DNA from: Escherichia coli
GTDB lineage: Bacteria > Pseudomonadota > Gammaproteobacteria > Enterobacterales > Enterobacteriaceae
Length of the DNA stretch: 64,000 nucleotides
Direction: 5' to 3' (one strand)
NCBI RefSeq assembly: GCF_002854065.1
Contig: NZ_CP024147.1
Below, piece by piece: positions 7,288-59,962 of the stretch (within the stretch, counting starts at the first letter, position 1; each line of letters starts with the position of its first letter). Made by a program: the position numbers and the translations under genes. The notes under the pieces are model-generated. The model was not told the origin of the DNA. It worked only from the letters and a program-made list of their open reading frames with translations, and searched no databases.

Positions 7288-7372
<85 letters not shown>

Positions 7373-28382: not shown

Positions 28383-28459
28383 GGAGCGGTAGTTCAGTCG
28401 GTTAGAATACCTGCCTGTCACGCAGGGGGTCGCGGGTTCGAGTCCCGTCCGTTCCGCCA
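28383..28459 (+). tRNA. aspV: tRNA-Asp (GTC); integration site of the downstream island
   Basis: Identical 77-nt sequence to aspU at 20158-20234. Confidence 0.97.
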
Positions 28460-28590: not shown

Positions 28591-29637
28591 TTACTCCAGC
28601 GCATCCCATTTCTCCAGCAGTTCTACTGGAATTTCATTTATTACCTCCGAGAAGCGTTTTCCGACCAGGCGTTCTGCCTGGCGCAGCAAAGGAATGGACG
28701 GGCTGCTCGGTTCGCTGTGCTCAAACCAGCGACGGATAACACGCAGGCGTTCCAGCGCGTCGTTCCGGTCGCGGATTTGCCGGGGTTCTGCGCCGGTCAT
28801 CGGTGATATTTCCTCCGAGATACGCACCGGTAGCGCAATCTGCTCTGCCTGCATCTGTTCAGTATGATCGATGGTGGCGTTCTCCGGCTGTTCAGCCTGT
28901 GGTTGTGGCAGGATCTCCGGCGTGGTGCTCTGCACTGCTCCCGGCAACAGGGCTAGCAGTTGCGTCAGACGGGAGAAGTCCGGTGCCTGGTCATTCAGCG
29001 TTTCACGCGCATGGCGTTGCAGCCGCTCAGTGGTCTCTGCTGCCTGGCGAAAGGCATCCAGCGGCAGTGTGCCGCGCGCTTCCAGGTCTGCCAGTTGCTG
29101 GCGTACCGATTCTGGTGCCAGCGCATCCGCCGGACGTAATGCAGATAGCGAACGCTCCACATCCCGTACCTGAAGGCGCATGGCAGCATTATTTGACAGT
29201 GTAATGCCACGAATATCCGCCATTACGCCTTCGTGGTCCAGCAACGCCGCCAGCGCGTTACTGCGTGCCACCGCAGCATCTTCGGCGGTGATATCTTCAG
29301 TCGCGAGCAGTTGAGGATGGATGGCGTCCGGGTACGTGGCGCACAACGTTTCCAGCAGCGTGAGCGTCTCCGCCAGTCCCCTGGCACCGGCCTGCTGGAT
29401 ACGGCAGCGCAGCAGGACAACCAGAATGCGGATATCTTTGCTGCGCATCAGCAGACGATGGGCGTCCCGCTCAAGCTCCGCCCAGTTAATGTTTTCAGGC
29501 GTACTGACAAAATCGCCATATTGCGCTTCTTCACGCGGTGCGGCGCGGGTGAACAGCAGCAGGTATTCCGGATCGTACTCCAGATCCGGGCCGCAGGGGC
29601 ATTCCGCCGAAATTGGGTCAGACAGGAATATTTCCAT
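28591..29637 (-). CDS. tssA: T6SS ImpA-N-domain protein (TssA-like)
   Basis: 348-aa ORF; N-terminus …ISAECPCGPDLEYDPEYLLL… resembles the ImpA_N signature. Confidence 0.7.
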   Translation of the reverse strand: MEIFLSDPISAECPCGPDLEYDPEYLLLFTRAAPREEAQYGDFVSTPENINWAELERDAHRLLMRSKDIRILVVLLRCRIQQAGARGLAETLTLLETLCATYPDAIHPQLLATEDITAEDAAVARSNALAALLDHEGVMADIRGITLSNNAAMRLQVRDVERSLSALRPADALAPESVRQQLADLEARGTLPLDAFRQAAETTERLQRHARETLNDQAPDFSRLTQLLALLPGAVQSTTPEILPQPQAEQPENATIDHTEQMQAEQIALPVRISEEISPMTGAEPRQIRDRNDALERLRVIRRWFEHSEPSSPSIPLLRQAERLVGKRFSEVINEIPVELLEKWDALE

Positions 29638-29647
29638 TTAATTATCC

Positions 29648-30676
29648 TCAGTGCGCCAGGTAGTGTTCTGGTTCGAAAATCATGCCCGTCACCGGGTTGT
29701 CGTGCATGGCTTTACCCGCCCATGCGGTCCAACCCAGTTGGTACGGACCACCGGTAACAGCCGGAGGGGCGGCGTGGGGCTTTAGCTGTAGCTCAATTTC
29801 CCAGCAGTATTCAAAACCACTAAAGGCGCGGACCAGTTCGGTCAGGACAGGCAGGTTATTGCCGCCAGGCAGAAAACGTCGGTAATCCTCCAGCGTCAGC
29901 GGGCCGATAACCAGCCGGAACTTATACTGCATGTCCGGCACGGCCTGGCCGATAAGTGCACCATTGCCAATAACGGAAGAGGGGGCAGGCATCCCCAGCC
30001 GGGTTATCTCATCGTCCGCCACGGCTATCCAGTGCAGCACATACTCTTGTATCCGGAAAGGTACACCGAAATAGTGCGCCAGCGTGGTGGCCAGACCGTC
30101 CGGATTGCGGGACTCACGCACCAGATGGGCCGATGCCGCCAGACGAGCGTGAGCCGGCAACGGGCTGTCGGCACTCTCCCGCAAATCCTGCCCGCTGAGG
30201 CTGGCGACATAAAAGGCAAAGCGGTCATGTTGCGGTTTATCCAGACCGCCCCCGGCGGACTGGGCGCTGCGCCATGCCTGGTAAAACTGCGTCAGCCAGC
30301 GGTGATGAAAAAGATCAGAAAAACGGGTTAGCGTCGGGTCTCTTCGGCTTTCAGTCCGGTTGCGCGCCAGTTCGCTGTAGTGCAGCGGCAGTGGACCGTT
30401 CGGCCCCCACAGCCCGAGACTGTACAAACTGATGTGCAAGCGCTCTTCCTGCCAGCTCACACTGGCGATTTCCCGTGGCGCAAAGGTTAGCGCGGGCGTT
30501 TGTCCGAGGCGAAATTTTTCTATCCGTGGTTGCCAGGTGTTGCCCGCCGGAACGCTACACAACTGCACATCAACGCGGCGCATCAGGTTCAGAAAACCGT
30601 AACGCCAGGGGGTTTCCTGCGCCTGAGTGAAATCGTTGCTCATACGCTTCCCCGCTGTCCCGCCCTGACAGGCCAA
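29648..30676 (-). CDS. tssG: T6SS baseplate protein TssG
   Basis: 342-aa ORF immediately downstream of and overlapping the tssF-like ORF; size and operon position fit TssG. Confidence 0.7.
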   Translation of the reverse strand: MACQGGTAGKRMSNDFTQAQETPWRYGFLNLMRRVDVQLCSVPAGNTWQPRIEKFRLGQTPALTFAPREIASVSWQEERLHISLYSLGLWGPNGPLPLHYSELARNRTESRRDPTLTRFSDLFHHRWLTQFYQAWRSAQSAGGGLDKPQHDRFAFYVASLSGQDLRESADSPLPAHARLAASAHLVRESRNPDGLATTLAHYFGVPFRIQEYVLHWIAVADDEITRLGMPAPSSVIGNGALIGQAVPDMQYKFRLVIGPLTLEDYRRFLPGGNNLPVLTELVRAFSGFEYCWEIELQLKPHAAPPAVTGGPYQLGWTAWAGKAMHDNPVTGMIFEPEHYLAH

Positions 30677-32523
30677 GTCATAATTTTACCGCGCTGCATG
30701 CTGTGCAGCGTCATCTGCGAGAAGGTATTAATGGAAACATGGCGGGCGATATAGTGTTCCAGCACCAGGCCGAACAGATACGGACTGATGCCGGAAAAAC
30801 CTTCTTCATCCACCGTCAGTTCACAACTGACGCCACGCCCATAGACCAGTAGTCCGGAACCGGGCAGACGGCGGGTGACCGGGGTCGTTTTACAACCAAT
30901 CAGGCTGCGCACCTGGCGCGATTGCGGACTGTCATGAGCAGGAATAAACAGGTTCAGCAGATCTCGCAACGCCTGGCCGCCGGTACGGTGATCCAGATCG
31001 GCCAGCGGCAGATAATTAAAAGATAACTGGCGGATCAACCGCCATGCCATCTCACGTTCAGCCAGCGGGGGCTGCGGCGAGCGTGGCGGGCGGATAAGCC
31101 CTACGCCCGCCACCGGGATGGCCGCATCCACGGTTAGATCGTCCCGGCCATTGCGGGCAATAAGACAGGGCAGATCGCGGTTAGTGACCATGGCCGTGAT
31201 GGTGATGTGGCGCAGATTTTCCGGGTACGGCGCTTCATACTGGTCAACCAGCGACAGGAACACTTCCGAGCCCGTATAGGGGGTACGGGTGCCGTAACGG
31301 CGGGCGTTTTCTGATAAGCGGCGGGGCTCCCGGCGCAGGGAAAAATAACGTCCGTGATTGCCTTCATCATTATTGCGGGTGTGGTAGAGCGGGCGAAAGG
31401 CCATCTTCCGTGTGGTGTCGGTTTCCAGCCCTTCCACTTCCTGGACCGAGAACACCTCATAATCCAGCGGATGGGTTCTGTCCACCACCAGATGCTGTTC
31501 CGTCGTGCTGTGCGTGACATCGATCCGGGCGGTGACGCGGGGAAACAGGTTGATAACCGGGGTACAGAACAGGCTGAACTGTGCCGCATTTGTCTGGTGG
31601 ATCAGCCAGTCCGGCGGCAGGCGGTTCAGCAGGATAACAATCTCCGCCACGCCACCGTCAATTTTCTGTAATCCGGCAGACAGGCCTGTCGGGGTGAAAA
31701 AATAGAAGCGTTCCGGACAGGCAAAATATTCATGCAGCAGGTTATGACCGTGAAACACGTTCCACGCCAGCGGCAGCAGCCCCTGATCCGGCTCCAGGCC
31801 TTCGTACATAACGGGCTGTTGCAGATTCACATCCAGCGCGCCGTCAAAATGTCCCGGAATGCCAGCCAGGGTCGCGATGGCGCTGGTATGTAGAAGTTCT
31901 AACATGTGTGAGGCCGTACGCTCCTCGCCGCAGAGATAAAACGGCAGCCTATCCAGTCCTGCAAGCTGACTGAATGTTAGTTCACCAAAGGTGCGCAGGG
32001 TAATACGCAGCGCCCCGGCGACGTGAATGTTGGCCGGCAGGTAGCGGTGCAGGGCAGGCATATCCGGTGGCGCGGCGGTCAGTCGCGCCTCTTCGATGGC
32101 GAGCGGCCACAGCGTTACATCCTGGCTGCTGCGAAACTGGCAGGCAGTGCTTTCGCCTTCCGGAATGGCGGAGAAAAAGGCCGTGTCGCGCGGGACGGTA
32201 AATCCTTTCGCCAGATCGCCTTCTTCCGTATCGGGATGCAACTGCGCCACGCTCATTGAGGGCGTGGGTGTGACGTAATTGGGGCTGACCACTTCCAGCA
32301 GGCGCTGGGTGAAACGGGGGAATTCAGCGTCAATTTTTAGCTGCGTGCGGGCGGTCAGGAAGCTGAAGGCCTCGACCATTCGCTCTACATACGGATCGGC
32401 AATATCCGTTCCCTGCATGCCCAGCCGGGCGGCGACTTTGGGATGACGGGCGGCAAATTCGGCTCCCGTTTCCCGCAGATAGCTCAGTTCGCGGTTGTAG
32501 TATTCCAGTAGCCGTGGATCCAT
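30640..32523 (-). CDS. tssF: T6SS baseplate protein TssF
   Basis: 627-aa ORF; N-terminus MDPRLLEYYNRELSYLRETGAEFAARHPKVAARLG… is typical of TssF. Confidence 0.75.
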   Translation of the reverse strand: MDPRLLEYYNRELSYLRETGAEFAARHPKVAARLGMQGTDIADPYVERMVEAFSFLTARTQLKIDAEFPRFTQRLLEVVSPNYVTPTPSMSVAQLHPDTEEGDLAKGFTVPRDTAFFSAIPEGESTACQFRSSQDVTLWPLAIEEARLTAAPPDMPALHRYLPANIHVAGALRITLRTFGELTFSQLAGLDRLPFYLCGEERTASHMLELLHTSAIATLAGIPGHFDGALDVNLQQPVMYEGLEPDQGLLPLAWNVFHGHNLLHEYFACPERFYFFTPTGLSAGLQKIDGGVAEIVILLNRLPPDWLIHQTNAAQFSLFCTPVINLFPRVTARIDVTHSTTEQHLVVDRTHPLDYEVFSVQEVEGLETDTTRKMAFRPLYHTRNNDEGNHGRYFSLRREPRRLSENARRYGTRTPYTGSEVFLSLVDQYEAPYPENLRHITITAMVTNRDLPCLIARNGRDDLTVDAAIPVAGVGLIRPPRSPQPPLAEREMAWRLIRQLSFNYLPLADLDHRTGGQALRDLLNLFIPAHDSPQSRQVRSLIGCKTTPVTRRLPGSGLLVYGRGVSCELTVDEEGFSGISPYLFGLVLEHYIARHVSINTFSQMTLHSMQRGKIMTWPVRAGQRGSV

Positions 32524-32538
32524 CGGTCTCTCTCTGAA

Positions 32539-33033
32539 TTAAAAAAACGTAATGCGGCTCTGCTCCATATCCAGCGCGCTACGTACCCGGAATGCAGTCG
32601 GATACGGCTGCGTGAGGATCTCGCCGCGAATTTCAAACTGTAATGTGTTATGGCCACTCTGGCGGCGCTCATCCTGAAGTGGGATGATTTGCAGGGTGGA
32701 CGCTTTCAGCCGGGGTTCAAACCGGGTGATGGTTCGCAAAATGGCCCTGCGGATATCGTCCCACTTGTGCTCATACAGAAAGCTGCCCGCCAGTGGCGGC
32801 AGGCCGTAGTTAAGTACGGATGCTGCCGCGTACGGATAACGTGCAGCATCAATATCATCTTCATGGCTGACGGTGTTGAGCAGAAATGACAAATCCCGGC
32901 GGATGATCTCCTTAAGCTGAACCGGGCTGACGCTGATACCGTGGTCGCGTTTCTGGTTTGGGGCGTCGTCACACAGGCGGTCAAACAGCGTGGGCAGCAG
33001 GTGATTGCCTGGACGCTGGCGGGAAGCGCTCAC
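32539..33033 (-). CDS. tssE: T6SS baseplate protein TssE (gp25-like)
   Basis: 164-aa ORF …LFDRLCDD… with GTG start overlapping the upstream stop (GTGA). Confidence 0.7.
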   Translation of the reverse strand: MSASRQRPGNHLLPTLFDRLCDDAPNQKRDHGISVSPVQLKEIIRRDLSFLLNTVSHEDDIDAARYPYAAASVLNYGLPPLAGSFLYEHKWDDIRRAILRTITRFEPRLKASTLQIIPLQDERRQSGHNTLQFEIRGEILTQPYPTAFRVRSALDMEQSRITFF

Positions 33034-33860
33034 GCGTCGCTTCCTTCAGCGGTGTTAAAGGTACAGGTGGACAAATCCAGCAGGCTGATATCGCCGTGAC
33101 CGGTGAGCCACACCCTCTGACCCAGCGCCTGTACCAGTGTCTCTCCCGGACCGTCCTGCCAGACTGTTTCCCGGCACAGACGCAGGGAGTCGGCAGCCTT
33201 TTCAGAGCCGCTGTAGCGGGGAAACAGCTAGGCACTGTGTGTATCGCCATTGTTCAGGGTGACGTTGACGGGTTTCCAGATCAAATCGATCAGATGCGCA
33301 GGCTGCGGCGATTTCAGCGAACAGATTTGTGAAAACGGCAGCCAGATATATGCTCCGCCCGCGATCAGTTCGAGTACCGGACCGGTACGGGAGTCGCTGT
33401 CGCTAATCCAGTCAAATGCGCCGCCATTCCACTGCCCGGAAGTGTCTGTTATGGCCTCAAGCGCGCGGCTGCGGTGGGTGTCAGCTTCCTGCGCTTCACC
33501 ACGGGCGTTACAGGCGAGGGCGGTCAGCAGATCCTCCATCCAGGCGGGCGGCGGGAGAATAACACCGGGTCGCTGTTCGCCCTGAAAGCAGACGTGGCGG
33601 TATATCTCACAGCGGATCAGCTCGCCAAATACCTGCGCTTCGCGGGTATAATTTGCGTCCATCCGGGCGCATAGCTGGATCTGTTGCAGTGCCCGCGACC
33701 AGTCGCCTGCCACGCAAAATAACTGAAACAGGCTGTGGCGGCTGGAGGCCTGCGCTGGGTGCATCCTGACCTGCAGCTCTGCCATCTGAATGCCCTCCGC
33801 CAGGGAATAATCCCGCAGCAGTGCCGACAAGGTAGTCGGTAGCTTGTTAATGTTTGTCAT
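33030..33860 (-). pseudogene. tagJ: T6SS accessory protein TagJ/ImpE (SciE)-like, interrupted by an in-frame amber codon at 33228-33230
   Basis: 210-aa ORF stops at TAG; the same frame continues about 65 codons to a TGA that overlaps the tssE start, giving about 275 aa in total. Confidence 0.55.
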
Positions 33861-34761
33861 GAGATATCTCTCCGTGTTGTGCCGGGTTTATCCGGTAATG
33901 GCTGTCAATGCCAATGATGCGATGCTCTTTCCGTGTCAGATCGGGCAGTACGGTGCTATGCGCTGTTTCCGGGGCGTATTCCGGGGAAAGTAAATGCAGG
34001 ATATCAGGGGGAGTCTTTTCGACAGGCCAGGCTGTTTCACCTTCGCCGGTGGCATCCAGTACATTGAGAATAGCGTCAATGCTTAACCCGCCAGTGACCA
34101 TATCCTGCAATGTCTCGGCTTCGGTGACCAGGTCACGCAATGAATCCAGATCCTGCGAGGTGGGCTCTTCGTTAAAGGGAAAAGGATCAGCATGGCGATG
34201 AAGATCTTGTTCGGGAGATAACAACGCCTCGCGGTATTCCTGATAAAGTCGGGTCAGGGCATTCCCTTTTTCCGCACCTTCTCCGGTGGAGGAGGCTCCA
34301 TGAACAGGAATGATATCGAATGGATTTTGTGATGTCAGATGCTGCTGCCTGAACCAATCCAGATCCAGATATTCGGTTATTGCTTCCGACGTGATGGCAG
34401 TCTGCGATATCGTTTTTACTGCGCTCAGGTCCGGAGATGATGGATTGCCATGTACAAGGCACCATGAAGATAACCCCCATTCTATCAGGTCGCCTTCATT
34501 CAGACGCATACGGTGATGAGGTTCCACAATCTGGTCGTTTACCGTACAGCAATATTCGGTAGACTGATTGATAATCCACCATGCTTCTTCGTGGCGGGTC
34601 AGAGTGAGGGCAATCTTTACATCATCATTCACCTTAAAAACAGGAATCCAGGGAGAGGTAACGGTGAAGATAATTTGTGTTCCTTCAGTCGCGTAAATTG
34701 TGTTATCGGCGATCCCGTGCGCCTGTATTTTTTGGAGTCCCCACGTAATATTTGGTTTCAT
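33847..34761 (-). CDS. tagH: T6SS-associated FHA-domain protein (TagH/Fha-like)
   Basis: 304-aa ORF; N-terminal region fits an FHA-like pattern (…WWIINQSTEYCCTVNDQIV…LNEGDLIEWG…); first gene of the minus-strand T6SS block. Confidence 0.5.
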   Translation of the reverse strand: MKPNITWGLQKIQAHGIADNTIYATEGTQIIFTVTSPWIPVFKVNDDVKIALTLTRHEEAWWIINQSTEYCCTVNDQIVEPHHRMRLNEGDLIEWGLSSWCLVHGNPSSPDLSAVKTISQTAITSEAITEYLDLDWFRQQHLTSQNPFDIIPVHGASSTGEGAEKGNALTRLYQEYREALLSPEQDLHRHADPFPFNEEPTSQDLDSLRDLVTEAETLQDMVTGGLSIDAILNVLDATGEGETAWPVEKTPPDILHLLSPEYAPETAHSTVLPDLTRKEHRIIGIDSHYRINPAQHGEISHDKH

Positions 34762-35208
34762 TGTGTATCACTGTGTAGAGTGTTTCTTTCAAAAGAATAA
34801 GTTTTCTAAATTTTTAGATAAGCAATGCTGATCAATTTACTTTATCAATATAAGTTTTCGCGGAAATATATAGTGGTGATTTTTAATTTAATATATTCAT
34901 GGTGTGTATGAAATTGACTTGCTCTATTGAATATCACCATGAAAAAGATACTACCTGCTATATTACATAGTGTTCTGTGATATGCATCATTGTTTCATTC
35001 TGCCTTTTTGATAATTCTATTAATTAGAAGTTTTAATCGGTACAGTTATGTTTATGTATCATTTATATGTTATTACATCATTAGGTGTAACAGATGGACA
35101 CTCCTGTTTCGCGCAGTGCACTATATGGAAAGCTAACCAAATCTTTGTTTAGATCTTTGGAATCTGCGACAACGTTCTGTAAATTACGTGCTAACCCTTA
35201 TGTCGAAC
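34762..35208. promoter_or_regulatory. AT-rich intergenic region upstream of the minus-strand T6SS operon (former divergent promoter region)
   Basis: About 450 bp of strongly AT-rich non-coding sequence between tagH start and IS2. Confidence 0.45.
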
Positions 35209-35219
35209 TGGATTTGCCC

Positions 35220-36125
35220 CTATATTTCCAGACATCTGTTATCACTTAACCCATTACAAGCCCGCTGCCGCAGATATTCCCGTGGCGAGCGATAACCCAG
35301 CGCACTATGCGGATGCCATTCGTTATAATGCTCGAACGCCTCTGCAAGGTTCTTTGCTGCCGTTAACCCGTCTGGTTTGGGCATGATACTGATGTAGTCA
35401 CGCTTTATCGTTTTCACGAAGCTCTCTGCTATTCCGTTACTCTCCGGACTCCGCACCGCCGTGTTCTTCGGTTCAAGTCCCAACATCCGGGCGAACTGGC
35501 GTGTTTCATTAGCCCGGTAGCATGAACCATTATCCGTCAGCCACTCCACTGGAGACGACGGAAGATCGTTGCCGAAGCGGCGTTCCACCGCTCCCAGCAT
35601 GACGTCCTGTACTGTTTCACTGTTGAAGCCGCCGGTAGTGACCGCCCAGTGCAGTGCCTCACGATCACAGCAGTCCAGCGCGAACGTGACACGCAGTCTC
35701 TCTCCGTTATCACAGCAGAACTCGAACCCGTCAGAGCACCATCGCTGATTGCTTTCTTTCACGGCCACTCTGCCTGTATGTGCCCGTTTCGATGGCGGTA
35801 CAGCAGGTTTTCGCTCAAGCAACAGCGCATTCTGGCGCATGATCCGGTAAACACGTTTGGCATTGATCGCAGGCATACCATCAAGTTCTGCCTGTCTGCG
35901 AAGCAGCGCCCATACCCGACGATAACCATACGTGGGCAGCTCTCCGATAACATGGTGTATACGGAGAAGCACATCCGTATCATCAGTGTGACGACTGCGG
36001 CGGCCATCCATCCAGTCATCGGTTCGTCTGAGAATGACGTGCAACTGCGCACGCGACACCCGGAGACAACGGCTGACTAAGCTTACTCCCCATCCCCGGG
36101 CAATAAGGGCGCGTGCGCTATCCAC
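35220..36125 (-). CDS. insD: IS2 transposase OrfB (InsD)
   Basis: 301-aa DDE transposase ORF inside IS2. Confidence 0.92.
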
Positions 36126-36448
36126 TTTTTTGCCCGTCCATATTCAACGGCTTCTTTGAGGAGTTCATTTTCCATCGTTTTCTTGCCGAGCAGGCGCTGG
36201 AGTTCTTTAATCTGCTTCATGGCGGCAGCAAGTTCAGAGGCAGGAACAACCTGTTCTCCGGCGGCGACAGCAGTAAGACTTCCTTCCTGGTATTGCTTAC
36301 GCCAGAGAAATAACTGGCTGGCTGCTACACCATGTTGCCGGGCAACGAGGGAGACCGTCATCCCCGGTTCAAAGCTCTGCTGAACAATTGCGATCTTTTC
36401 CTGTGTGGTACGCCGTCTGCGTTTCTCCGGCCCTAAGACATCAATCAT
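36083..36448 (-). CDS. insC: IS2 OrfA (InsC) HTH regulator
   Basis: [25 protein letters not shown]… inside IS2. Confidence 0.9.
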
Positions 36449-36539
36449 CTGTTCTCCAATGACTAGTCTAAAAACTAGTATTAAGACTATCACTTATTTA
36501 AGTGATATTGGTTGTCTGGAGATTCAGGGGGCCAGTCTA

Positions 36540-39390
36540 CGAACTGACGCATTGGTTGCATCAGTTAATACAACAACCAGAGAATGACATTCACAATGTG
36601 CTTCGACATTATCAAATAACATCTGCTGATGTTGAGAAGGCGTTAATTCAGCAATTGAATATATTGCCTGCCGGAGCGAGTGTAATTAACGATTTTTCCC
36701 ATCATATCGATCTTTCTGTTGAAAAAGCCTGGATGTTGGCAAGTATCCGCTTTGGCGATCAAAAAATTCGTAGTGGATGGTTATTACTTGCCTGGTTAAC
36801 CACGCCAGAATTGTGTCGGGTGTTAAAAAATATTTGTGCGCCATTGGCAGAGCTACCGGTAGATGAACTATTAGATATTCTTCCGTCTTTAATCACTTCA
36901 TCTCCTGAATTAACAGAAATGCCTTATGACGGCTCGGATTTAAATTCTGCAGTACCGGGGGAAGCTAGCCAGGTCTTTGCCGGCGAATCAACTGGAAGCA
37001 AATCCGCGCTGGCGAAATACTGTCAGGACATGACTGCGCTGGCCCGTGAAGGCAATATCGATCCGGTCACCGGTCGCGAACACGAGATCCGTACTATGAC
37101 GGATATTCTGCTGCGCCGTCGCCAGAACAACCCGCTACTGACCGGCGAAGCGGGAGTCGGGAAAACGGCAGTGGTGGAAGGATTCGCGCTGGCGATTGCC
37201 GGGGGGGAAGTACCGCCTTCACTGCGTAACGTGCGGTTGCTTTCACTGGATGTTGGCGCGCTGCTGGCTGGGGCGTCCATGAAGGGTGAGTTTGAATCTC
37301 GCCTGAAAGCGTTGCTGGAAGAGGCCGCGCACTCGCCGCAGCCGGTAATCCTTTTTGTTGATGAAGTTCACACGCTGGTGGGCGCTGGTGGGCGCTGGTG
37401 GTACATCCGGCACCGTCGCATCACGGGCAGTGTGCAGTCCTGGCAGTATACGCCGCGCGGGCTGCTGGCGCTCCATACGGATGAAGAGAAACGGGAGACG
37501 CGCTGGCAGTACACCCCGGAAGGGCTGGTTGCCAGTCTGAGCAACGGCAATGGGGCTCAGTACCGGTTCAGCTACGACGGCGACGGACGGCTGACGGGAG
37601 AACAGCGCCCGGACGGTCTGATACGGATGTTTGCGCTGAATGCGGGCGGGTTCCCGGTCATCATCCAGACGCAGGGCACAGAAGGAGGGATGCGTAATGA
37701 GCGACAGGAGCGTGATGCGCTGGGCCGCCTGCTGCGCAGTGACACGCAGCACAGTACACGGACCTTCAGCTACAACCGTCTTGACCAGATAACGGAAGTG
37801 ACGCTCACCCCCACGGAAGAAGGGGAACGGCTGCACCACATGCAGGCGGACAGGGTGCGCTTTGCGTATGACCGCAGCGGCTGGCTGACGGCAGAGCACA
37901 GCGTGCACGGCAGCATAAAGTACCGGCGCGATGCGCTGGGCAATCCCACCGATATCACCTTACCGGACGGGCAGCATCTCAGCCATCTTTACTACGGCAG
38001 CGGGCATCTGCTCCAGACGGCACTGGACGGTATCACGGTCAGCGAATATGAGCGTGACAGTCTGCACCGTCAGGTGATACGCACGCAGGGGAAACTGGCG
38101 ACGTTCAGCGGCTACAACGCCGACAACCGGTTAAGCTGGCAGCGCAGCCTGCCAGGTGGCAGCCAGAATCCACAGCAGGCCGGTACTCCCCCGGCGCAGA
38201 ACGACAGCGTGACGGCGCGGGACTATATCTGGAACGCAGACGGTGAAGTCGGCGGCATCAATGACAAACTGCGCGGTTGCCTGGTGTTCAGCTATGACCG
38301 CAGCGGCTGGCTGACCAGCCGCACGGGGCAGATGTATGACCATGACCATTATTATTACGATAAAGCGGGCAACCTGCTGACGGATGAGTATCAGGGAGCG
38401 GTGCTGGACAACCGCCTGCCGGGCTACGGGCGTGACCGTTACCGCTATAACGAATGGGGCGAACTGACAGAGCGCAGGGACCAGCAGCTGGAGTGGAACG
38501 CGCAGGGCCAGTTAACGCGGGTCATCAGCAGCAACAGCGAGACGCGGTATCAGTACGATGCGCTGGGCAGGCGCATCATCAAGGCGACCAGCAATCTCCA
38601 TACCGACCGGGGAGAACGAAGCCGGACAACGTTTGTGTGGGAAGGGTTCCGGCTGTTGCAGGAGACAACGTGGCAGGGAAAGCGGACATACCTGTACGAC
38701 GCGGAACAGCCGTACACGCCGGTGGCGGCCATCACCGGGCGCGGAGAGAGTCAAAAAATCTGGTATTACCATACGGACCTGACGGGCACGGTACAGGAGG
38801 TGACCGCGCCGGACGGGACGCTGGTGTGGGCGGGCTACCAGGCGGGATTTGGTGAAAACCGGGGCGACATCAGCAACAGCGGGGCGTACTTTGAACAGCC
38901 GCTGCGGCTGCCGGGGCAGTATTATGATGAAGAGACGGGGCTGCACTATAATCTGTTCAGATATTATGCGCCGGAGTGCGGGAGGTTCATAAGTCAGGAT
39001 CCGATAGGGCTGGCGGGTGGAATAAACCTCTATGCTTATGCTCCTAACCCAATTAGCTGGATCGATCCCTTTGGACTGGATTTACACCATATAATACAGC
39101 AAGAAATTTGGAAGGAGTTCAAAACAGATCTTAAAAAAGTCACCGGATATGTACAAAATGTCACGAAAAAGGCAGCCGACATGACAAACCTAATCGATCT
39201 GGATAAACCTTTTCATGGTAATCACCCAGCTTATAGTCAATATGTAAGAGAAGCAATCGAAGACCTGAAGGCTAATAATAACTTAACGTTGAAAGGATTA
39301 AGAGATTTACAAGATGATCTTAAAAAGAAAATAGGTGAAGCTCAAAAGTCTGGCAAAAATCTAAATGATTATTTTAAATCGGGGTGCTGA
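36540..39390 (+). CDS. chimeric ORF: 5'-truncated ClpV/TssH N-domain and AAA+ D1 Walker A region fused in frame to an Rhs YD-repeat core with a C-terminal toxin domain
   Basis: Residues …[13 protein letters not shown]…[13 protein letters not shown] are ClpV-like, then YD-repeat sequence (…[13 protein letters not shown]…), then the DPFGL junction and a roughly 110-aa C-terminal tip; no native start codon, as the track start lies inside the IS2 inverted repeat. Confidence 0.75.
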
Positions 39391-39845
39391 TTATGAGATA
39401 CAAAAAGGTAACTGTTTCTTATGAGCCTGCAATCACAGGAAATAGTAAAGGAGGGTATTCAGTAGAAATAAAAGATAGACTCTCTTTTAATAGTCCTACG
39501 GAGAGAAAATACTTTGAGTCTTTTTTTGAAAATAATGATGAAAACTATAATAGAGTTTTTATCAATAATTTTGAAACTATTGATACAGTTTATCTAAAAA
39601 ATTTAATTTTATTTCCAAAACAAAAAAGGATAAAGGAAATTGATATGCTAATATTTTCCCCGCACAAACTCGGACTTAGTTTTATGATATCGGAGAAATT
39701 ATATAATATTATAACTAAATTTAAACTTCCTCCGTTCAATAAGATACCAGCTCAAATCAATACATTCAATACGAAGTATTTTTTGATCGGTTTCCCAATG
39801 ATACCAAAAGAAAGAATTGATTTAGATAAATCTATATTTTTTTGA
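39384..39845 (+). CDS. putative Rhs immunity protein (cognate to the toxin tip at 39060-39390)
   Basis: 153-aa AT-rich ORF whose ATG overlaps the rhs stop (ATGA); typical toxin/immunity arrangement. Confidence 0.6.
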
Positions 39846-41038: not shown

Positions 41039-41322
41039 GTCGGAACGTAATAATCTCGGTGAATATTGGTTTTTATTCTCCCGGATCTCCGCCAGTACTA
41101 ACAGGCGAAAATCCGGGAGGACTGATATTACGGCTGGATAATATCGTCAATAAACACCACACCATCAGTAGTACGCAACCAGCGCGGCGCTTTCAGTTTT
41201 GCCGCAAAGAACCAGATCAGTTCACAAAGCAGCCCCGTCAGGGGTTGTTCCATTTTAGATCCCTGCGCCTGTTCCGTCAGGATCTGGAGTAATACCTCGC
41301 AATATTCACACAATTGTAGTGG

Positions 41323-42735
<1,413 letters not shown>

Positions 42736-42973
42736 TGACACTCTATAAGAGTTTCAGCGAAGCGATCGCAGTGATCGGCCAGGTCTGTGAAATCGGTGGC
42801 AGAACTGAAAGGAATGGACAGTAAATCATAATCAGGGGTGAGGATTGTAGCCATAAGGCAACCTCCGATAAGTAGGCGTTAAAACCACCACCGAAGAGAC
42901 CAATCTTACGGGTGGTGGAATCGGGCGGAGTTGGTCTTACCGGCCTTATCGGATACCGGCGCATCTTTCGATG

Positions 42974-43811
42974 CTGGCAGGGAAAGCGGACATACCTGTA
43001 CGACGCGGAACAGCCGTACACGCCGGTGGCGGCCATCACGGGGCGCGGAGAGAGCCAGAAAATCTGGTATTACCACACGGACCTGACGGGCACGGTACAC
43101 GAGGTAACCGCGCCGGACGGGACGCTGGTGTGGGCGGGCTACCAGGCGGGATTTGGTGAAAACCGGGGCGACATCAGCAACAGCGGGGCGTACTTTGAGC
43201 AGCCGCTGCGGCTGCCGGGGCAGTATTATGATGAAGATACGGGGCTGCACTATAATCTGTTCAGATATTATGCGCCGGAGTGCGGGCGGTTTATCAGTCA
43301 GGACCCGATAGGGCTGGCGGGAGGAATAAACCTATATGCTTATGCGCCTAATCCGCTAAGTTATATTGATCCTCTTGGGCTTTGTAAATTAAGGGGAAGC
43401 GATGGGCGCTACAGAAGTGCACAGAATATTCAGGAAGAAATAGGCGGCCTACCCAATTTTGCAGGAAAAACTCCAGGAGAAATACGACAAACTTTGCGTA
43501 ATCGAGGTTATTCGTCGGTACAAGCGTATAGTGGAGGAGAGGTCTGGACAAAAGCATTACCTGACGGAAATACTGTTGCAGTGAGGCTTGATCCGGCAAA
43601 TCCTCGCTCACCTTCACATTATGCTGATGCTGTACCTCATGCTCATATTGAAACAGTTCCAACATCCAGTGTTTCTAATGGGAATTATCGCCCGCGAGAC
43701 GTGACTGGCAGGCATACTGCCACTGGTGGGGTTTCTGATCGAGGAACAAATCCGAATCATAACGCTGATGTTTACATTCCAATGTCTCCGGGACGATTCC
43801 CATATGATTAA
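42974..43811 (+). CDS. orphan Rhs C-terminal fragment (conserved core end plus alternative toxin tip); no upstream rhs body
   Basis: About 400 bp that are nearly identical to 38672-39070 by eye (core end through the DPxGL junction), followed by a different roughly 140-aa C-terminal domain. Confidence 0.7.
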
Positions 43812-43822
43812 TGTGAGGTTTT

Positions 43823-44086
43823 ATGAATATCCGAAATCAATATAATGAAGCCTTAAATAAATTAGAAGTTGATGTTAATGATGGTTTGAGAGATTTAATA
43901 AACATATATTGTGTGGCTATTGATTCTTTTGAAAATGATATCGTTGACTCGATTGCTTTATACGTGATTGATATGGGAAATAAAGATACTTGTCGATATC
44001 TACAAGAAGTCTTATCAGAGAATGAAGATCCTTATTTAGTAAAAGAATTTAATGCATGGATAAAAGAAATTAAGAAAAAATATTAA
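43823..44086 (+). CDS. putative immunity protein for the orphan Rhs toxin tip
   Basis: 87-aa AT-rich ORF 11 bp downstream of the toxin-tip stop. Confidence 0.55.
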   Translation: MNIRNQYNEALNKLEVDVNDGLRDLINIYCVAIDSFENDIVDSIALYVIDMGNKDTCRYLQEVLSENEDPYLVKEFNAWIKEIKKKY

Positions 44087-44091
44087 AATAA

Positions 44092-44133
44092 AAGCCGGGA
44101 AGGTTATAAAATCTTCCCGGCTTTTTATTTTTA
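44092..44133. terminator. bidirectional rho-independent terminator
   Basis: agccgggaag…cttcccggct stem flanked by A- and T-runs, between convergent ORFs. Confidence 0.75.
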
Positions 44134-44364
44134 ATTCTCGTTCAGTACACTAAACATCCCGTCCCGCATCCCCTTAACCGCCTGTTTAACCTGATAAAGT
44201 TCCCTGCGCAGTTCCTGTACTTCGTTGTTATCGGCAAGCAGGATCAGGCAGCCTTCCGAGATCTTCACAGTAACGCCCGTGCCGATCGAAAATTCCGCTT
44301 CTCTCAGCCATTTGGCGCTGATTTTGATCACCGGCGTGTCGCTGCTGTTGGGCAGATATCCCAC
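44131..44364 (-). CDS. SymE-like (AbrB-fold) toxin homolog
   Basis: 77-aa ORF …ISAKWLREAEFSIGTGVTVKISEGCLILL… resembles the SymE/SpoVT-AbrB swapped-hairpin family. Confidence 0.5.
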   Translation of the reverse strand: MGYLPNSSDTPVIKISAKWLREAEFSIGTGVTVKISEGCLILLADNNEVQELRRELYQVKQAVKGMRDGMFSVLNEN

Positions 44365-49180: not shown

Positions 49181-49320
49181 GTCTGGCGTAGGCCGGATAA
49201 GACGTTTACGCCGCATCCGGCAATTGTGCACCGATGCCTGATGCGACGCTGACGCGTCTTATCATGCCTACAAATCTGTACGCGAACCGTAGGCCGAATA
49301 ATGCGTTCACGCCGCATCCG
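49181..49320. repeat. REP/BIME repeat cluster
   Basis: Repeated gccggataagacgtttacgccgcatccggca and gcctgatgcgacgctg motifs. Confidence 0.75.
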
Positions 49321-51770: not shown

Positions 51771-52520
51771 ATGTCCTTGCCGTCGATTCCCTCTTTTGTG
51801 TTGTCGGGATTACTGTTGCTTTGCTTGCCGTTTTCTTCATTTGCCAGCGCCACCACATCACATATCTCTTTCAGCTACGCCGCCCGCCAGCGGATGCAAA
51901 ACCGTGCGCGTTTATTAAAACAGTACCAAACCCATCTGAAAAAGCAGGCCAGCTATATTGTGGAAGGCAATGCCGAAAGCAGAAGGGCGCTACGCCAGCA
52001 CAACCGCGAACAGATAAAACAGCATCCAGAATGGTTTCCTGCGCCGCTCAAGGCGAGTGACAGACGCTGGCAGGCGCTGGCGGAAAACAACCACTTTTTA
52101 AGCAGCGACCATCTGCATAACATTACCGAAGTGGCGATTCACCGCCTGGAGCAGCAGCTTGGCAAGCCTTACGTCTGGGGCGGCACGCGGCCTGATAAAG
52201 GCTTTGACTGTAGCGGGTTGGTTTTTTATGCCTACAACAAGATCCTCGAGGCGAAGCTCCCGCGTACGGCTAATGAGATGTATCACTACCATCGGGCAAC
52301 GATTGTGGCGAATAACGACCTGCGCCGGGGAGATTTGCTGTTTTTCCATATCCACAGCCGCGAGATTGCCGACCATATGGGGGTATATCTGGGCGACGGT
52401 CAGTTTATTGAGTCACCGCGCACCGGGGAAACCATTCGGGTAAGTCGGTTAGCTGAACCTTTCTGGCAGGATCATTTTTTAGGCGCGCGCCGGATTTTGA
52501 CGGAGGAGACGATTTTGTAG
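51771..52520 (+). CDS. yafL: NlpC/P60-family peptidase lipoprotein YafL
   Basis: ORF with signal peptide and Cys peptidase motif (DCSGLV); start chosen at MSLPSIPSF. Confidence 0.85.
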   Translation: MSLPSIPSFVLSGLLLLCLPFSSFASATTSHISFSYAARQRMQNRARLLKQYQTHLKKQASYIVEGNAESRRALRQHNREQIKQHPEWFPAPLKASDRRWQALAENNHFLSSDHLHNITEVAIHRLEQQLGKPYVWGGTRPDKGFDCSGLVFYAYNKILEAKLPRTANEMYHYHRATIVANNDLRRGDLLFFHIHSREIADHMGVYLGDGQFIESPRTGETIRVSRLAEPFWQDHFLGARRILTEETIL

Positions 52521-52612
52521 GACGGATAAGGCATTCACGCCGCATCCGGCAGTTGTACGCAGGTGCCTGATGCGACGCTGGCGCGTCTTATCATGCCTAC
52601 AAATCTGTGCGT
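52521..52612. repeat. REP/BIME repeats upstream of rayT
   Basis: ggacggataaggcattcacgccgcatccggca… gcctgatgcgacgctggcgcgtcttatcatgcctacaa. Confidence 0.75.
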
Positions 52613-53324: not shown

Positions 53325-55034
53325 TCAACTCAACGCCCCCATAATCTTCAACTCCAGCTCATCCGGCACTTCGTTATACGACAGCACATGCAGCCCCGGC
53401 GCAAACAACCTTGCATAACGCGCCAGCAAAGGGCGCAGCTGAGGCGGCACCAGCAGCACCGGGTCTTTCCCCGCTGCTTTCATCTGCTCCTTCACCTGCG
53501 GCATCGTGCTCTGGAACTGGTTGAGCATGTTCGGGTCGACCGGCACGCTGTCGAGCATCACTTTACCGCCCTGTTGCGCCTGATTCACCACATTGGTGAG
53601 CAGATTTTCCAGCTCATTATTCAGCGTATACACCGTCAGCTCCTGCTTGCGAACGAACGGATGGGTAATGCTGCGCCGCAGCGCCAGGCGTACATCGGCC
53701 GCCAGCAGAATATGATCTTTAGTCACCGCGCTACTGGCGACCAGCACGGTGGCGATGGTGACGATATCGCGCAGGGAAACGCCTTCGGTCAGTAGTGTGC
53801 GGTACACTTTCAGCAACTGGCTGTAATTCAGCGCCGCGCTTAAGTCTTCTGCCAGGCGCGGTGCCATCGACGACAAACGGTTATGCAACTGTGTGATGTC
53901 GTCATAGTTAAACAAATCAGGAATATAGCTGCGTACAATCTTATTCACATGGGTGGCAATCACGCTGGCGCTGTCGATCACCTGATACCCCATATTCAGC
54001 GCCTTCGCTTTCTGCGCAGGCTGGATCCAGGTCACCGGCATCCCGTACGCCGGGTCGTTCCCCAGCACGCCGTCAATCTCGCCGTAGGTTTCGCTGGAGG
54101 GCAGGGCCATCAGTTTATCCGCCGGAATATCCGCTTCATCAGCCTTAATGCCGTTGATGAAAATAGCGTACTGGCTGGGCTTAAGGCGGAAGTTTTCCCG
54201 AATGCGGATCTCCGGCAGCAGCACGCCGTTGCCGTCGGATATCACCTGTCGCACGCCGCGAATACGCTGGGTGAGCGGGTTGCCCTGGGCTTTGTCCACC
54301 AGCGCCACCAGCTTGTAACCGAGGCTTAAACTGATAGGCTCGATCAGCGGTATCGTTTCCCAACTGACCTGTTGCTCGCTGGTTTCGGTGATGGTGCGGG
54401 TCAGCGTTTCGAGACTTTTCTCCTCCGCCTTCGCTGCCTGCGGGCGTTTGCTCATCCGCCAGCCGGTAAAGCCAAGCAGGGCGCTGAACAGCAAAAACGG
54501 CAGATGCGGCATTCCCGGCACCACCGCCAGCACAAACATAATCCCGGTGGCGGTGTAGAGCACCGACGGGCTTGCCAGCAGCTGGTGGCGCACGTCATGG
54601 GCGATATCGCCGTTGTCGCTGACGCGGGTGACGATAATCGCCGCCGCGGTGGAGAGCAGCAGGGAAGGGATCTGCGCCACCAGCCCGTCGCCGATGGTCA
54701 TCAGCACATATTGCTGGAAGGCAGCATCGGCGCTCAGGTTGTATTTGAAGATCCCGATACAGACACCGCCGATCAGGTTGATCGCCAGAATCATCATCCC
54801 GGCGATGGCGTCCCCGCGCACAAACTTTGATGCCCCGTCCATCGCGCCGTAGAAATCGGCCTCGCTGGCGACATCTTTACGCCGGGTTTGCGCCTGCGCC
54901 TGGTTGATCAACCCGGCGTTAAGGTCGGCGTCAATCGCCATCTGTTTGCCGGGCATCGCGTCCAGGGTAAAGCGGGCAGAAACCTCGGAAATACGCTCGG
55001 CCCCTTTGGTGACGACGATAAAGTTGATTGTCAA
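53325..55034 (-). pseudogene. lfhA: Flag-2 lateral flagellar export protein FlhA homolog, 5'-truncated remnant
   Basis: FlhA-like sequence (…FYGAMDGASKFVRGDAIAG…) lacking the N-terminal region; no ATG start. Confidence 0.85.
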
Positions 55035-58534: not shown

Positions 58535-59818
<1,284 letters not shown>

Positions 59819-59962
59819 CCACTACATAACCTGAATCTGAGGCAGCACCTGGCACGGCTGGGACGGAAGTCGCTGTCGTTCTCAAAATCGGTGGAGCTGC
59901 ATGACAAAGTCATCGGGCATTATCTGAACATAAAACACTATCAATAAGTTGGAGTCATTACC

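Follow-up and report, generated by a model that had tools for sequence, protein, structure and literature searches.

The DNA analysed here is a stretch of 64,000 nucleotides from Escherichia coli (contig NZ_CP024147.1 of assembly GCF_002854065.1), in the following called the window. Its gene order is K-12-like and runs from metQIN–gmhB–rrnH–tRNA-Asp–yafC…dnaQ–tRNA-Asp through a type VI secretion system island (T6SS-1) to yafV–ivy–fadE. The island is reduced to a left arm, to the gene clpV (tssH), which starts at 35094 divergently from the left arm and is interrupted by the insertion sequence IS2, and to the 3′ part of an rhs gene, to which clpV is fused in frame. Three separable lesions, namely a deletion of about 22 kb, a slippage duplication of 10 bp (+10) and a later insertion of IS2, are proposed as the history of this locus, and a rough probability of 0.8 is given to it.

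The clpV–rhs junction and the repeated 10-bp unit

The breakpoint was mapped by alignment to the intact tssH of E. coli E189 (L001) and to the full-length PAAR/RHS genes of MB53 (L003), PapRG-06-5 (L002) and VE-T9 (L222). It lies between 37410 and 37411, where clpV ends with its native nt 971 and rhs resumes at nt 2086, in codon phase 0 and with residue 696. The parental ends (a slash marks the break) read …ATCCGG/TACG in clpV and …GCAGC/CACC in rhs and have 0 nt in common; the signature of a microhomology-mediated deletion, shared bases of which one copy is kept, is absent from this junction. It was spanned by 0 of 5,426 complete RefSeq E. coli genomes.

Compared with VE-T9, in which the island has its full layout at this chromosomal site, the window lacks 22,020 bp with roughly 20 genes. 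The deleted interval comprises the 3′ 1.66 kb of clpV, tssB, tssC, an effector/immunity pair, hcp, tssJ, tssK, tssL, tssM, tagF, several small open reading frames (ORFs), vgrG, the gene of a DcrB-like chaperone and rhs nt 1-2085, and comparison with E189 gave a matching picture of the lost genes. A model's first reading of the sequence (the original prediction) had listed the 3′ part of clpV, any vgrG and the 5′ end of rhs as lost; these are gone, but the extent was understated, as the deletion of about 22 kb took nearly the whole T6SS core.

The junction sits 10 nt 3′ of a tandem repeat of three 10-bp units. The near-copy CACGCTGGTG at 37371-37380 is followed by two copies of GGCGCTGGTG at 37381-37390 and 37391-37400, as the original prediction had noticed and as both Tandem Repeats Finder (TRF; period 10, 2.9 copies, 100% match) and the alignment to tssH confirmed. 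The alignment gave the order …CACGCTGGTG GGCGCTGGTG GTACATCCGG TACGGGGG… for native clpV and …CACGCTGGTG GGCGCTGGTG GGCGCTGGTG GTACATCCGG CACCGTCGC… for the window, and the extra unit, absent from native clpV, is one of the two identical copies. Both copies of GGCGCTGGTG and the next 10 nt (GTACATCCGG, 37401-37410) are 100% clpV. The fusion is therefore not located at the repeat, where the original prediction had put it, because clpV runs on through 37401-37410 and rhs begins only at 37411. In the rhs parents the nearest similarity to the unit is a GCGCTGG 7-mer located 21 nt upstream of the rhs breakpoint, and this 7-mer was deleted from the window together with the following 14 nt.

In native clpV CGCTGGTGG is already present twice at period 10, which amounts to a 9/10-nt direct near-repeat. 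The copy number of the unit in nature was found to be 1 (L221), 2 (native) or 3 (the window, L011 and L018). The -10 allele was recovered from Logan contig L221, in which the cluster is otherwise intact and the loss of one unit leads to a 328-aa product (P0138), and the tail of this product, VVHPVRGMLPTC followed by a stop, was reproduced by in-silico deletion of one unit. The 10-bp unit is a slippage hotspot. Because it also slips in an otherwise intact cluster, independent slippage is sufficient for the additional copy, and within the history graded above the +10 change is read as a slipped-strand duplication inside clpV that is separate from the deletion and needs no link to it.

Some of the strains compared carry lesions of their own. 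VE-T9 (NZ_AP027963.1), the reference for the intact layout, is itself decaying, with tssH and tssL annotated as frameshifted and an internal stop in tssK. The tssH gene of BS90R-A (L006) carries IS1 and IS26, and that of 2012C-4221 (L021) an in-frame internal deletion of 1.1 kb. Inactivation of T6SS-1 in E. coli seems to be frequent and varied in mechanism.

The chimeric gene and the IS2 insertion

With clpV severed after nt 971 (phase 2) and rhs entered in phase 0, the deletion by itself does not keep the Rhs frame and leads to a stop near 37540. The additional 10 bp (+1 modulo 3) restore the Rhs frame, and the fusion is in frame because the deletion and the duplication combine. The resulting layout consists of ClpV residues 1-321, a scrambled linker of 6 aa (RWWYIR) and Rhs from residue 696 onward. 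The ClpV part contains a Walker A motif (GEAGVGKT) and a Walker B motif (FVDEVH), with a Pfam AAA match at aa 236-320 of the reconstructed protein. In the chimera of 986 aa Pfam additionally assigned RHS repeats to residues 340-720, the RHS core to 777-809 (about 38758-38856 in the window) and an AHH nuclease to 879-965 (E = 2.3e-8; about 39064-39324). Two statements of the original prediction, that 36540-37402 encodes a ClpV N-domain with Walker A and that Rhs sequence follows in the same frame, were thus borne out. From parental nt 2086 on, the rhs part and full-length PAAR/RHS genes share 94-96% identity.

The product falls short of a functional ClpV/TssH, of which nt 1-971 of 2634 are kept (the full protein has about 877 aa and two AAA+ modules); the N-domain and D1 through Walker B are present, and AAA_lid, AAA_2 and ClpB_D2-small of the intact copies are missing. 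The window also lacks a complete T6SS core cluster, with tssB, tssC, hcp, vgrG, tssJ, tssK, tssL and tssM all located in the deleted interval. Of a PAAR-Rhs protein the chimera retains the RHS core and the variable C-terminal toxin. PF05488 (PAAR) and PF20148 (DUF6531), both carried by full-length relatives, are absent, and the Rhs sequence begins at parental residue 696 of about 1348-1376. The ORF of 150 aa adjoining the toxin stop was taken as a candidate immunity gene; it was called as a gene in L018 and matched no NCBIfam family.

The element inside clpV is IS2 (IS3 family) according to its length of 1331 bp, its 5-bp target-site duplication (CGAAC at 35204-35208 and 36540-36544) and its two proteins, the repressor TnpA (275.8 bits against an NCBIfam cut-off of 229) and the transposase TnpB (727.6 bits against 597). 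It lies in codon 39, in agreement with the original prediction that IS2 interrupts the clpV fragment. The same prediction held that the clpV frame has no start codon even after excision of IS2 and that its 5′ end had been lost. In fact, in-silico removal of IS2 and one CGAAC copy joins the ATG at 35094 in frame with 36545-39390, and the reconstructed ORF, which starts with MDTPVSRSALYGK..., is uninterrupted over 986 aa and identical to GenBank entry STH34264.1.

The exact 986-aa chimera, with the same junction and three units and without IS2, was found in GCA_900449015.1 (L011), where STH34264.1 is deposited under the name 'chaperone clpB', and in a metagenome contig from ERZ27239107 (L018). 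The former is the nearest relative of the window, with 99.94-99.96% identity over 21 kb and collinearity apart from IS2. A protein database search with the 949-aa ORF downstream of IS2 missed the chimera, which was found with the exact sequence of the neighbour and an exact look-up. IS2 is missing from the sister loci L011, L017 and L018 and is placed as the last event because IS2-free sisters carry the identical chimera.

Promoter-like sites for the ORF downstream of IS2 were at chance level (3 found against 3.6 expected in shuffled sequences), and a promoter borne by IS2 or located internally was dropped as a candidate since such sites are no commoner than in the shuffles; nothing thus points to expression of this ORF. 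The chimera in the window is a pseudogene, cut from its promoter and start codon by IS2. Its toxin is undeliverable because the secretion machine is gone, and the toxin/immunity module is plausibly what is retained.

The surviving left arm is 99.7% identical to the annotated island of E. coli XJ34. Its tagJ carries a nonsense codon at W211 (TGG to TGA relative to XJ34; stop at 33228-33230, minus strand). The truncated product of 210 aa was also called in L018, and as this contig is free of IS2, the tagJ mutation is older than the IS2 insertion. The T6SS-1 in the window is dead, a remnant of a decayed island. ARAGORN additionally called a tRNA-His of 94 nt inside the tssF coding region (30764-30857, minus strand), where no Rfam tRNA match was obtained, and this call is probably a false positive.

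Table 1. Features of the T6SS-1 remnant and of the chimeric gene in the window
Feature	Position	Strand	Basis
tRNA-Asp adjoining the left arm	28383-28459		tRNA call
Surviving T6SS-1 left arm (tssA/impA, tssG, tssF, tssE, tagJ, tagK)	28591-34761	-	synteny with annotated XJ34
clpV (tssH) 5′ end: ATG, codons 1-38 and one base, severed by IS2	35094-35208	+	
IS2 (1331 bp) inside clpV codon 39	35209-36539	-	exact boundaries and NCBIfam
clpV continuation: N-domain and first part of D1, ending at native nt 971	36545-37410	+	99.3% identical to intact tssH
Three tandem 10-bp units CACGCTGGTG, GGCGCTGGTG, GGCGCTGGTG	37371-37400	+	TRF and alignment to tssH
clpV–rhs junction (clpV nt 971 to rhs nt 2086)	37410-37411	+	base-level parental alignment
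rhs 3′ part: C-terminal half of the YD-repeat shell, RHS core, AHH-family toxin, stop	37411-39390	+	Pfam
Candidate immunity gene for the AHH toxin (150 aa)	39393-39845	+	inferred from position (ORF abutting/overlapping toxin stop)

Deletion endpoints at clpV nt 971-973

A second deletion starts at the same place in clpV. It is referred to as the XJ34-type allele (X), as opposed to the window-type allele (W), and was found in XJ34 (L005) and in L007, L009 and L013, where clpV is cut at the shared endpoint and the rhs partner lies 243 nt further in than in W. The X junction, …GGTACATCCGGTA/TCCGGTCATC, has a 4-nt microhomology (GGTA), is out of frame and shows no 10-bp duplication. On the side of rhs, toxin and immunity gene W and X differ by 3-6% and in yafV–fadE by about 2%, whereas the left flank differs by 0.3%. 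Single-nucleotide polymorphisms in the island-only flank were counted together with two intact-cluster strains (L012 and L015), with 21 between W and X, 17 between W and L012 and 14 between X and L012, and the four-point test grouped W and L015 against X and L012. The W and X deletions are thus, as judged from these sequence comparisons, independent, because the rhs sides differ far more than the left flank and because intact strains fall between the two alleles. Common ancestry of W and X had appeared possible from the 8.8-kb flank and was rejected once the comparison was restricted to the island part of this flank and extended to intact islands.

A further deletion was found in L081 (also P0137), where clpV nt 973 is joined to clpV nt 1405 by an in-frame deletion of 435 bp with GGTA microhomology, in a lineage whose island shows only some 87% identity. 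Three independent deletions, W, X and L081, accordingly have the endpoint at nt 971-973 in common. L081 was retrieved from scans of metagenome and genome contigs with a 17-nt pattern, which gave approximately 200 matches, nearly all of them chance matches in unrelated taxa, with L081 as the only real one. An unbiased set of 120 close clpV copies from complete genomes yielded, over nt 672-1271, nothing apart from the X type and a single ordinary deletion, at nt 1087 and with an overlap of 15 nt (2012C-4221). The rhs partner site of X, …GCGGGCGGGTA/TCCGGTCATC (window about 37650), is also the right endpoint of a tssA-rhs deletion in GDSC2227PM (L223, about 2501-2506), which may either have arisen independently or derive from the XJ34 type by a secondary deletion.

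Each 10-bp unit holds the Chi octamer 5′-GCTGGTGG-3′, with starts at 37374, 37384 and 37394 on the plus strand of the window. Native tssH contains exactly two Chi sites, arranged as a tandem with positions nt 945 and nt 955. From the second one the shared endpoint is 9-11 nt away in the 3′ direction, and the next Chi on the same strand of the intact island is about 15 kb downstream. The deleted DNA is on the 3′ side of the doublet, which is the orientation active for RecBCD arriving from there. Resection by RecBCD and its control by Chi are established (PMC3375238, PMC6393298), and RecBCD-dependent end-joining in E. coli uses microhomologies of 1-9 nt (10.1101/605246). From the K-12-like gene order, the direction of rrnH and the Chi bias in the window (12 on the plus strand, 4 on the minus strand) the region is inferred to be replicated from left to right. 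Two tandem Chi pairs occur in the 64 kb; the second is in the opposite orientation, on the minus strand at 54296 and 54305 (CCACCAGC on the plus strand), with a distance of 9 nt.

According to a model based on these positions, RecBCD would resect a downstream break, for example from a collapsed rightward-moving fork, toward the left as far as the first Chi in the correct orientation, the clpV doublet. The protected 3′ end would then be joined or primed ectopically, either via alternative end-joining (A-EJ) or via a restart resembling microhomology-mediated break-induced replication (MMBIR). That the tandem Chi sites set the left deletion endpoint is plausible, but held to be less likely than not. 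The wider proposal, in which breaks at any point of the Chi-free stretch of roughly 15 kb downstream would be resected back to the doublet, which would be a natural anchor from which independent lineages lose the T6SS at nt 971-973 while the same unit slips by +10 or -10, is likewise regarded as rather doubtful.

Several observations weigh against a role of Chi. The adjacency was noticed after the fact, and Chi-dependent nicking in vitro occurs 4-6 nt from Chi, compared with 9-11 nt here. L081 counts less than the other two deletions because the search pattern forced this endpoint. Other island deletions have Chi-free starts, in tssA (L223), in tssF (L224), in tagJ (MB53) and at clpV nt 1087 (2012C-4221), and a ClpV-Rhs fusion gene of Salmonella is also without Chi, for which reason Chi was rejected as a general feature of clpV-rhs fusions. 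Moreover, with GGTA used at both the X and the L081 junctions and the X partner site reused in L223, similarity alone may favour the site.

The last point leads to an explanation unrelated to Chi, in which the endpoint would result from replication slippage or end-joining via local similarity (CCGGTA/GGGTA and ATCCGG motifs at the partner sites). Besides the GGTA shared by X and L081, both partners of which read GGGTATCCG, it can draw on the Chi-free deletions, with 6 nt (CGGGTA) at the X partner site in the unrelated tssA-rhs deletion of GDSC2227PM and 7 nt in the tssF-rhs deletion of GF3-3 (L224). A microhomology of 4 nt is, however, far too common to account for three independent uses of one position, W has the same endpoint without any microhomology, and the site has no stable secondary structure. 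For hairpins and other secondary structure at the endpoint nothing unusual was seen (z-scores of -0.3 to +0.6), and structure was rejected as a cause of the hotspot on these scores. Local similarity is considered a serious possibility, at somewhat below even odds.

History of the locus and comparison with known systems

In the preferred history of three separable lesions, an illegitimate deletion of about 22 kb fused clpV, after its nt 971, to the PAAR-rhs effector gene downstream, from nt 2086 of the latter, and slipped-strand duplication of the native near-repeat, 10 nt upstream of the junction, shifted the frame by +1. Finally, IS2 entered codon 39 and separated the chimera from promoter and start codon. 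Only IS2 has a fixed place in this order; the deletion and the +10 duplication may have occurred in either order or in one complex event. Nothing substantial speaks against this history, but a W junction without the duplication was not found in any collection.

The same absence is what would be expected if duplication and junction had been made in one complex repair event by serial template switching of the MMBIR type. A 3′ end at the second Chi (nt about 962) would re-anneal out of register on the first Chi unit, be extended by about 20 nt to nt 971 and then switch to rhs. The junction can indeed be read as clpV 1-961 followed by 20 nt copied from clpV 952-971 and then by rhs, and the duplication is only 10 nt away from it. 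On the other hand, the unit slips alone in an intact cluster (the -10 allele), so that an independent event is sufficient, and with a single W lineage sampled the missing intermediate is weak evidence. One complex event is accordingly held to be possible but rather improbable.

Far less probable is the idea that the chimera was selected as a new gene, for instance as an Rhs toxin (cytoplasmic or re-targeted) under the clpV promoter, with +10 favoured because it restored the frame. The frame is restored exactly, the RHS core, AHH toxin and downstream ORF are intact, and the IS2-free allele is complete with the native start. Against this, just two further assemblies of a very large collection carry the chimera, IS2 inactivates it in the window, and PAAR, the shell's N-terminal half and the entire delivery machine have been lost, while the sister lineage X is out of frame and more widespread. 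With a prior chance of about 1 in 3 for restoring the frame, the in-frame fusion is most likely an accident.

The original prediction had assumed that a single microhomology deletion between shared 10-bp sequences made both the repeat and the fusion, on a clpV already devoid of its 5′ end. The repeat is close to the fusion, and the rhs parent offers the 7-nt match GCGCTGG upstream of its breakpoint. Nevertheless, the repeat cannot be the microhomology behind the deletion: both copies and the next 10 nt are clpV throughout, the rhs parents have no copy at the breakpoint, and the 7-mer with the 14 nt after it is absent from the window. Moreover, such a deletion should leave one copy instead of two, and a start codon exists upstream of IS2. 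This explanation is highly improbable and is contradicted by the alignment to both parental genes. Misassembly is a classic problem of short tandem repeats and of repetitive rhs genes, but an assembly artefact can be dismissed here, because an NCTC contig of 4.7 Mb and a metagenome contig, which were assembled independently, have the identical junction and repeat; junction and repeat are both real. The history of the locus is ordinary genome decay resolved to the nucleotide.

Further mobile and Rhs-related features were recorded to the right of the immunity region. Two 100% identical copies of an IS3-family element of 1258 bp lie in inverted orientation about 16 kb apart (41315-42572, minus strand; 58569-59826, plus strand), each with an Rfam isrC match (42382-42504 and 58637-58759), and the pair could allow an inversion of yafV-ivy-fadE and neighbours. 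The first copy separates the Rhs immunity region from an orphan rhs C-terminal fragment (42912-43811), which has an RHS-associated core and a different C-terminal domain. Next to this fragment come a small ORF that is a candidate for immunity (43823-44086) and, on the minus strand at 44131-44364, a SymE-like toxin gene with a weak NCBIfam match below the cut-off. Across the window, three intergenic Rfam matches to naRNA4 (CssrE) were obtained at 7291-7367, 49191-49268 and 52520-52597.

Internal deletions of T6SS islands have been described in Salmonella, with about 15 kb lost from the pathogenicity island SPI-6 in SARA29 and about 24 kb from SPI-19 in Enteritidis (Blondel et al. 2009, PMC2907695). 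As in these cases, most core genes are gone here and a non-functional remnant is left beside a tRNA gene; the window holds the E. coli counterpart, next to tRNA-Asp. The present case differs in the base-level resolution of the junction, in the in-frame chimera obtained via a second event of 10 bp and in the subsequent IS2 insertion.

A Salmonella chimera (P0067; 933 aa, named 'AAA family ATPase', gene at 3001-5802 in L019/L020) was found in 2680 blocks of the assembly collection. Like the window gene it is an independent in-frame fusion of clpV to the 3′ part of rhs that keeps a toxin, in this case Tox-ART-HYD1, with immunity-like genes downstream. Its breakpoint is at ClpV aa 611, after D1 (…KPV/PGCGRDRY…), unlike that of the window, with no duplication nearby, and the gene has no Chi site. 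Furthermore, this fusion of the SPI-6 deletion type is very widespread, in contrast to the rare window allele. Comparison of the two genes shows that clpV–rhs fusions evidently arise repeatedly.

The deletions were also compared with RecBCD-dependent A-EJ and microhomology-mediated illegitimate recombination in E. coli (the Chayot model, per 10.1101/605246), in which deletions with 0-9 nt of microhomology are formed after resection. The junctions of X, L081, L223 and L224 have 4-7 nt and W has none. A-EJ was described for induced laboratory breaks, whereas the deletions considered here are natural ones. The literature searched contained no report of natural deletion endpoints that cluster immediately 3′ of a Chi doublet. 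The repeat behaves as in slipped-strand indels, with one 10-bp unit gained or lost at a native 9/10-nt direct repeat; what sets it apart from ordinary cases is that its unit contains Chi and that the indel corrects the frame left by the deletion next to it. Finally, as in orphan rhs-CT (C-terminal) toxin/immunity modules, an N-terminally truncated rhs keeps core, toxin and, in the window, a candidate immunity gene. The window copy is, however, the main rhs gene, truncated by the deletion and fused to clpV, and not a promoterless product of rhs-rhs recombination. The window chimera is a new and rare case of the known T6SS-island deletions and clpV–rhs fusions.

The locus provides a well-resolved example of the loss of a T6SS by deletion, slippage indel and insertion of an IS element. 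It also calls for caution in annotation, as ClpV–Rhs fusions have been deposited as 'chaperone clpB' and 'AAA family ATPase'. If it is true that Chi-limited resection fixes the starts of deletions, deletion maps of decaying islands would be partly predictable from Chi positions, and the recurrent endpoint would be population-genomic evidence that Chi positions shape gene loss in the decay of enterobacterial genomes.

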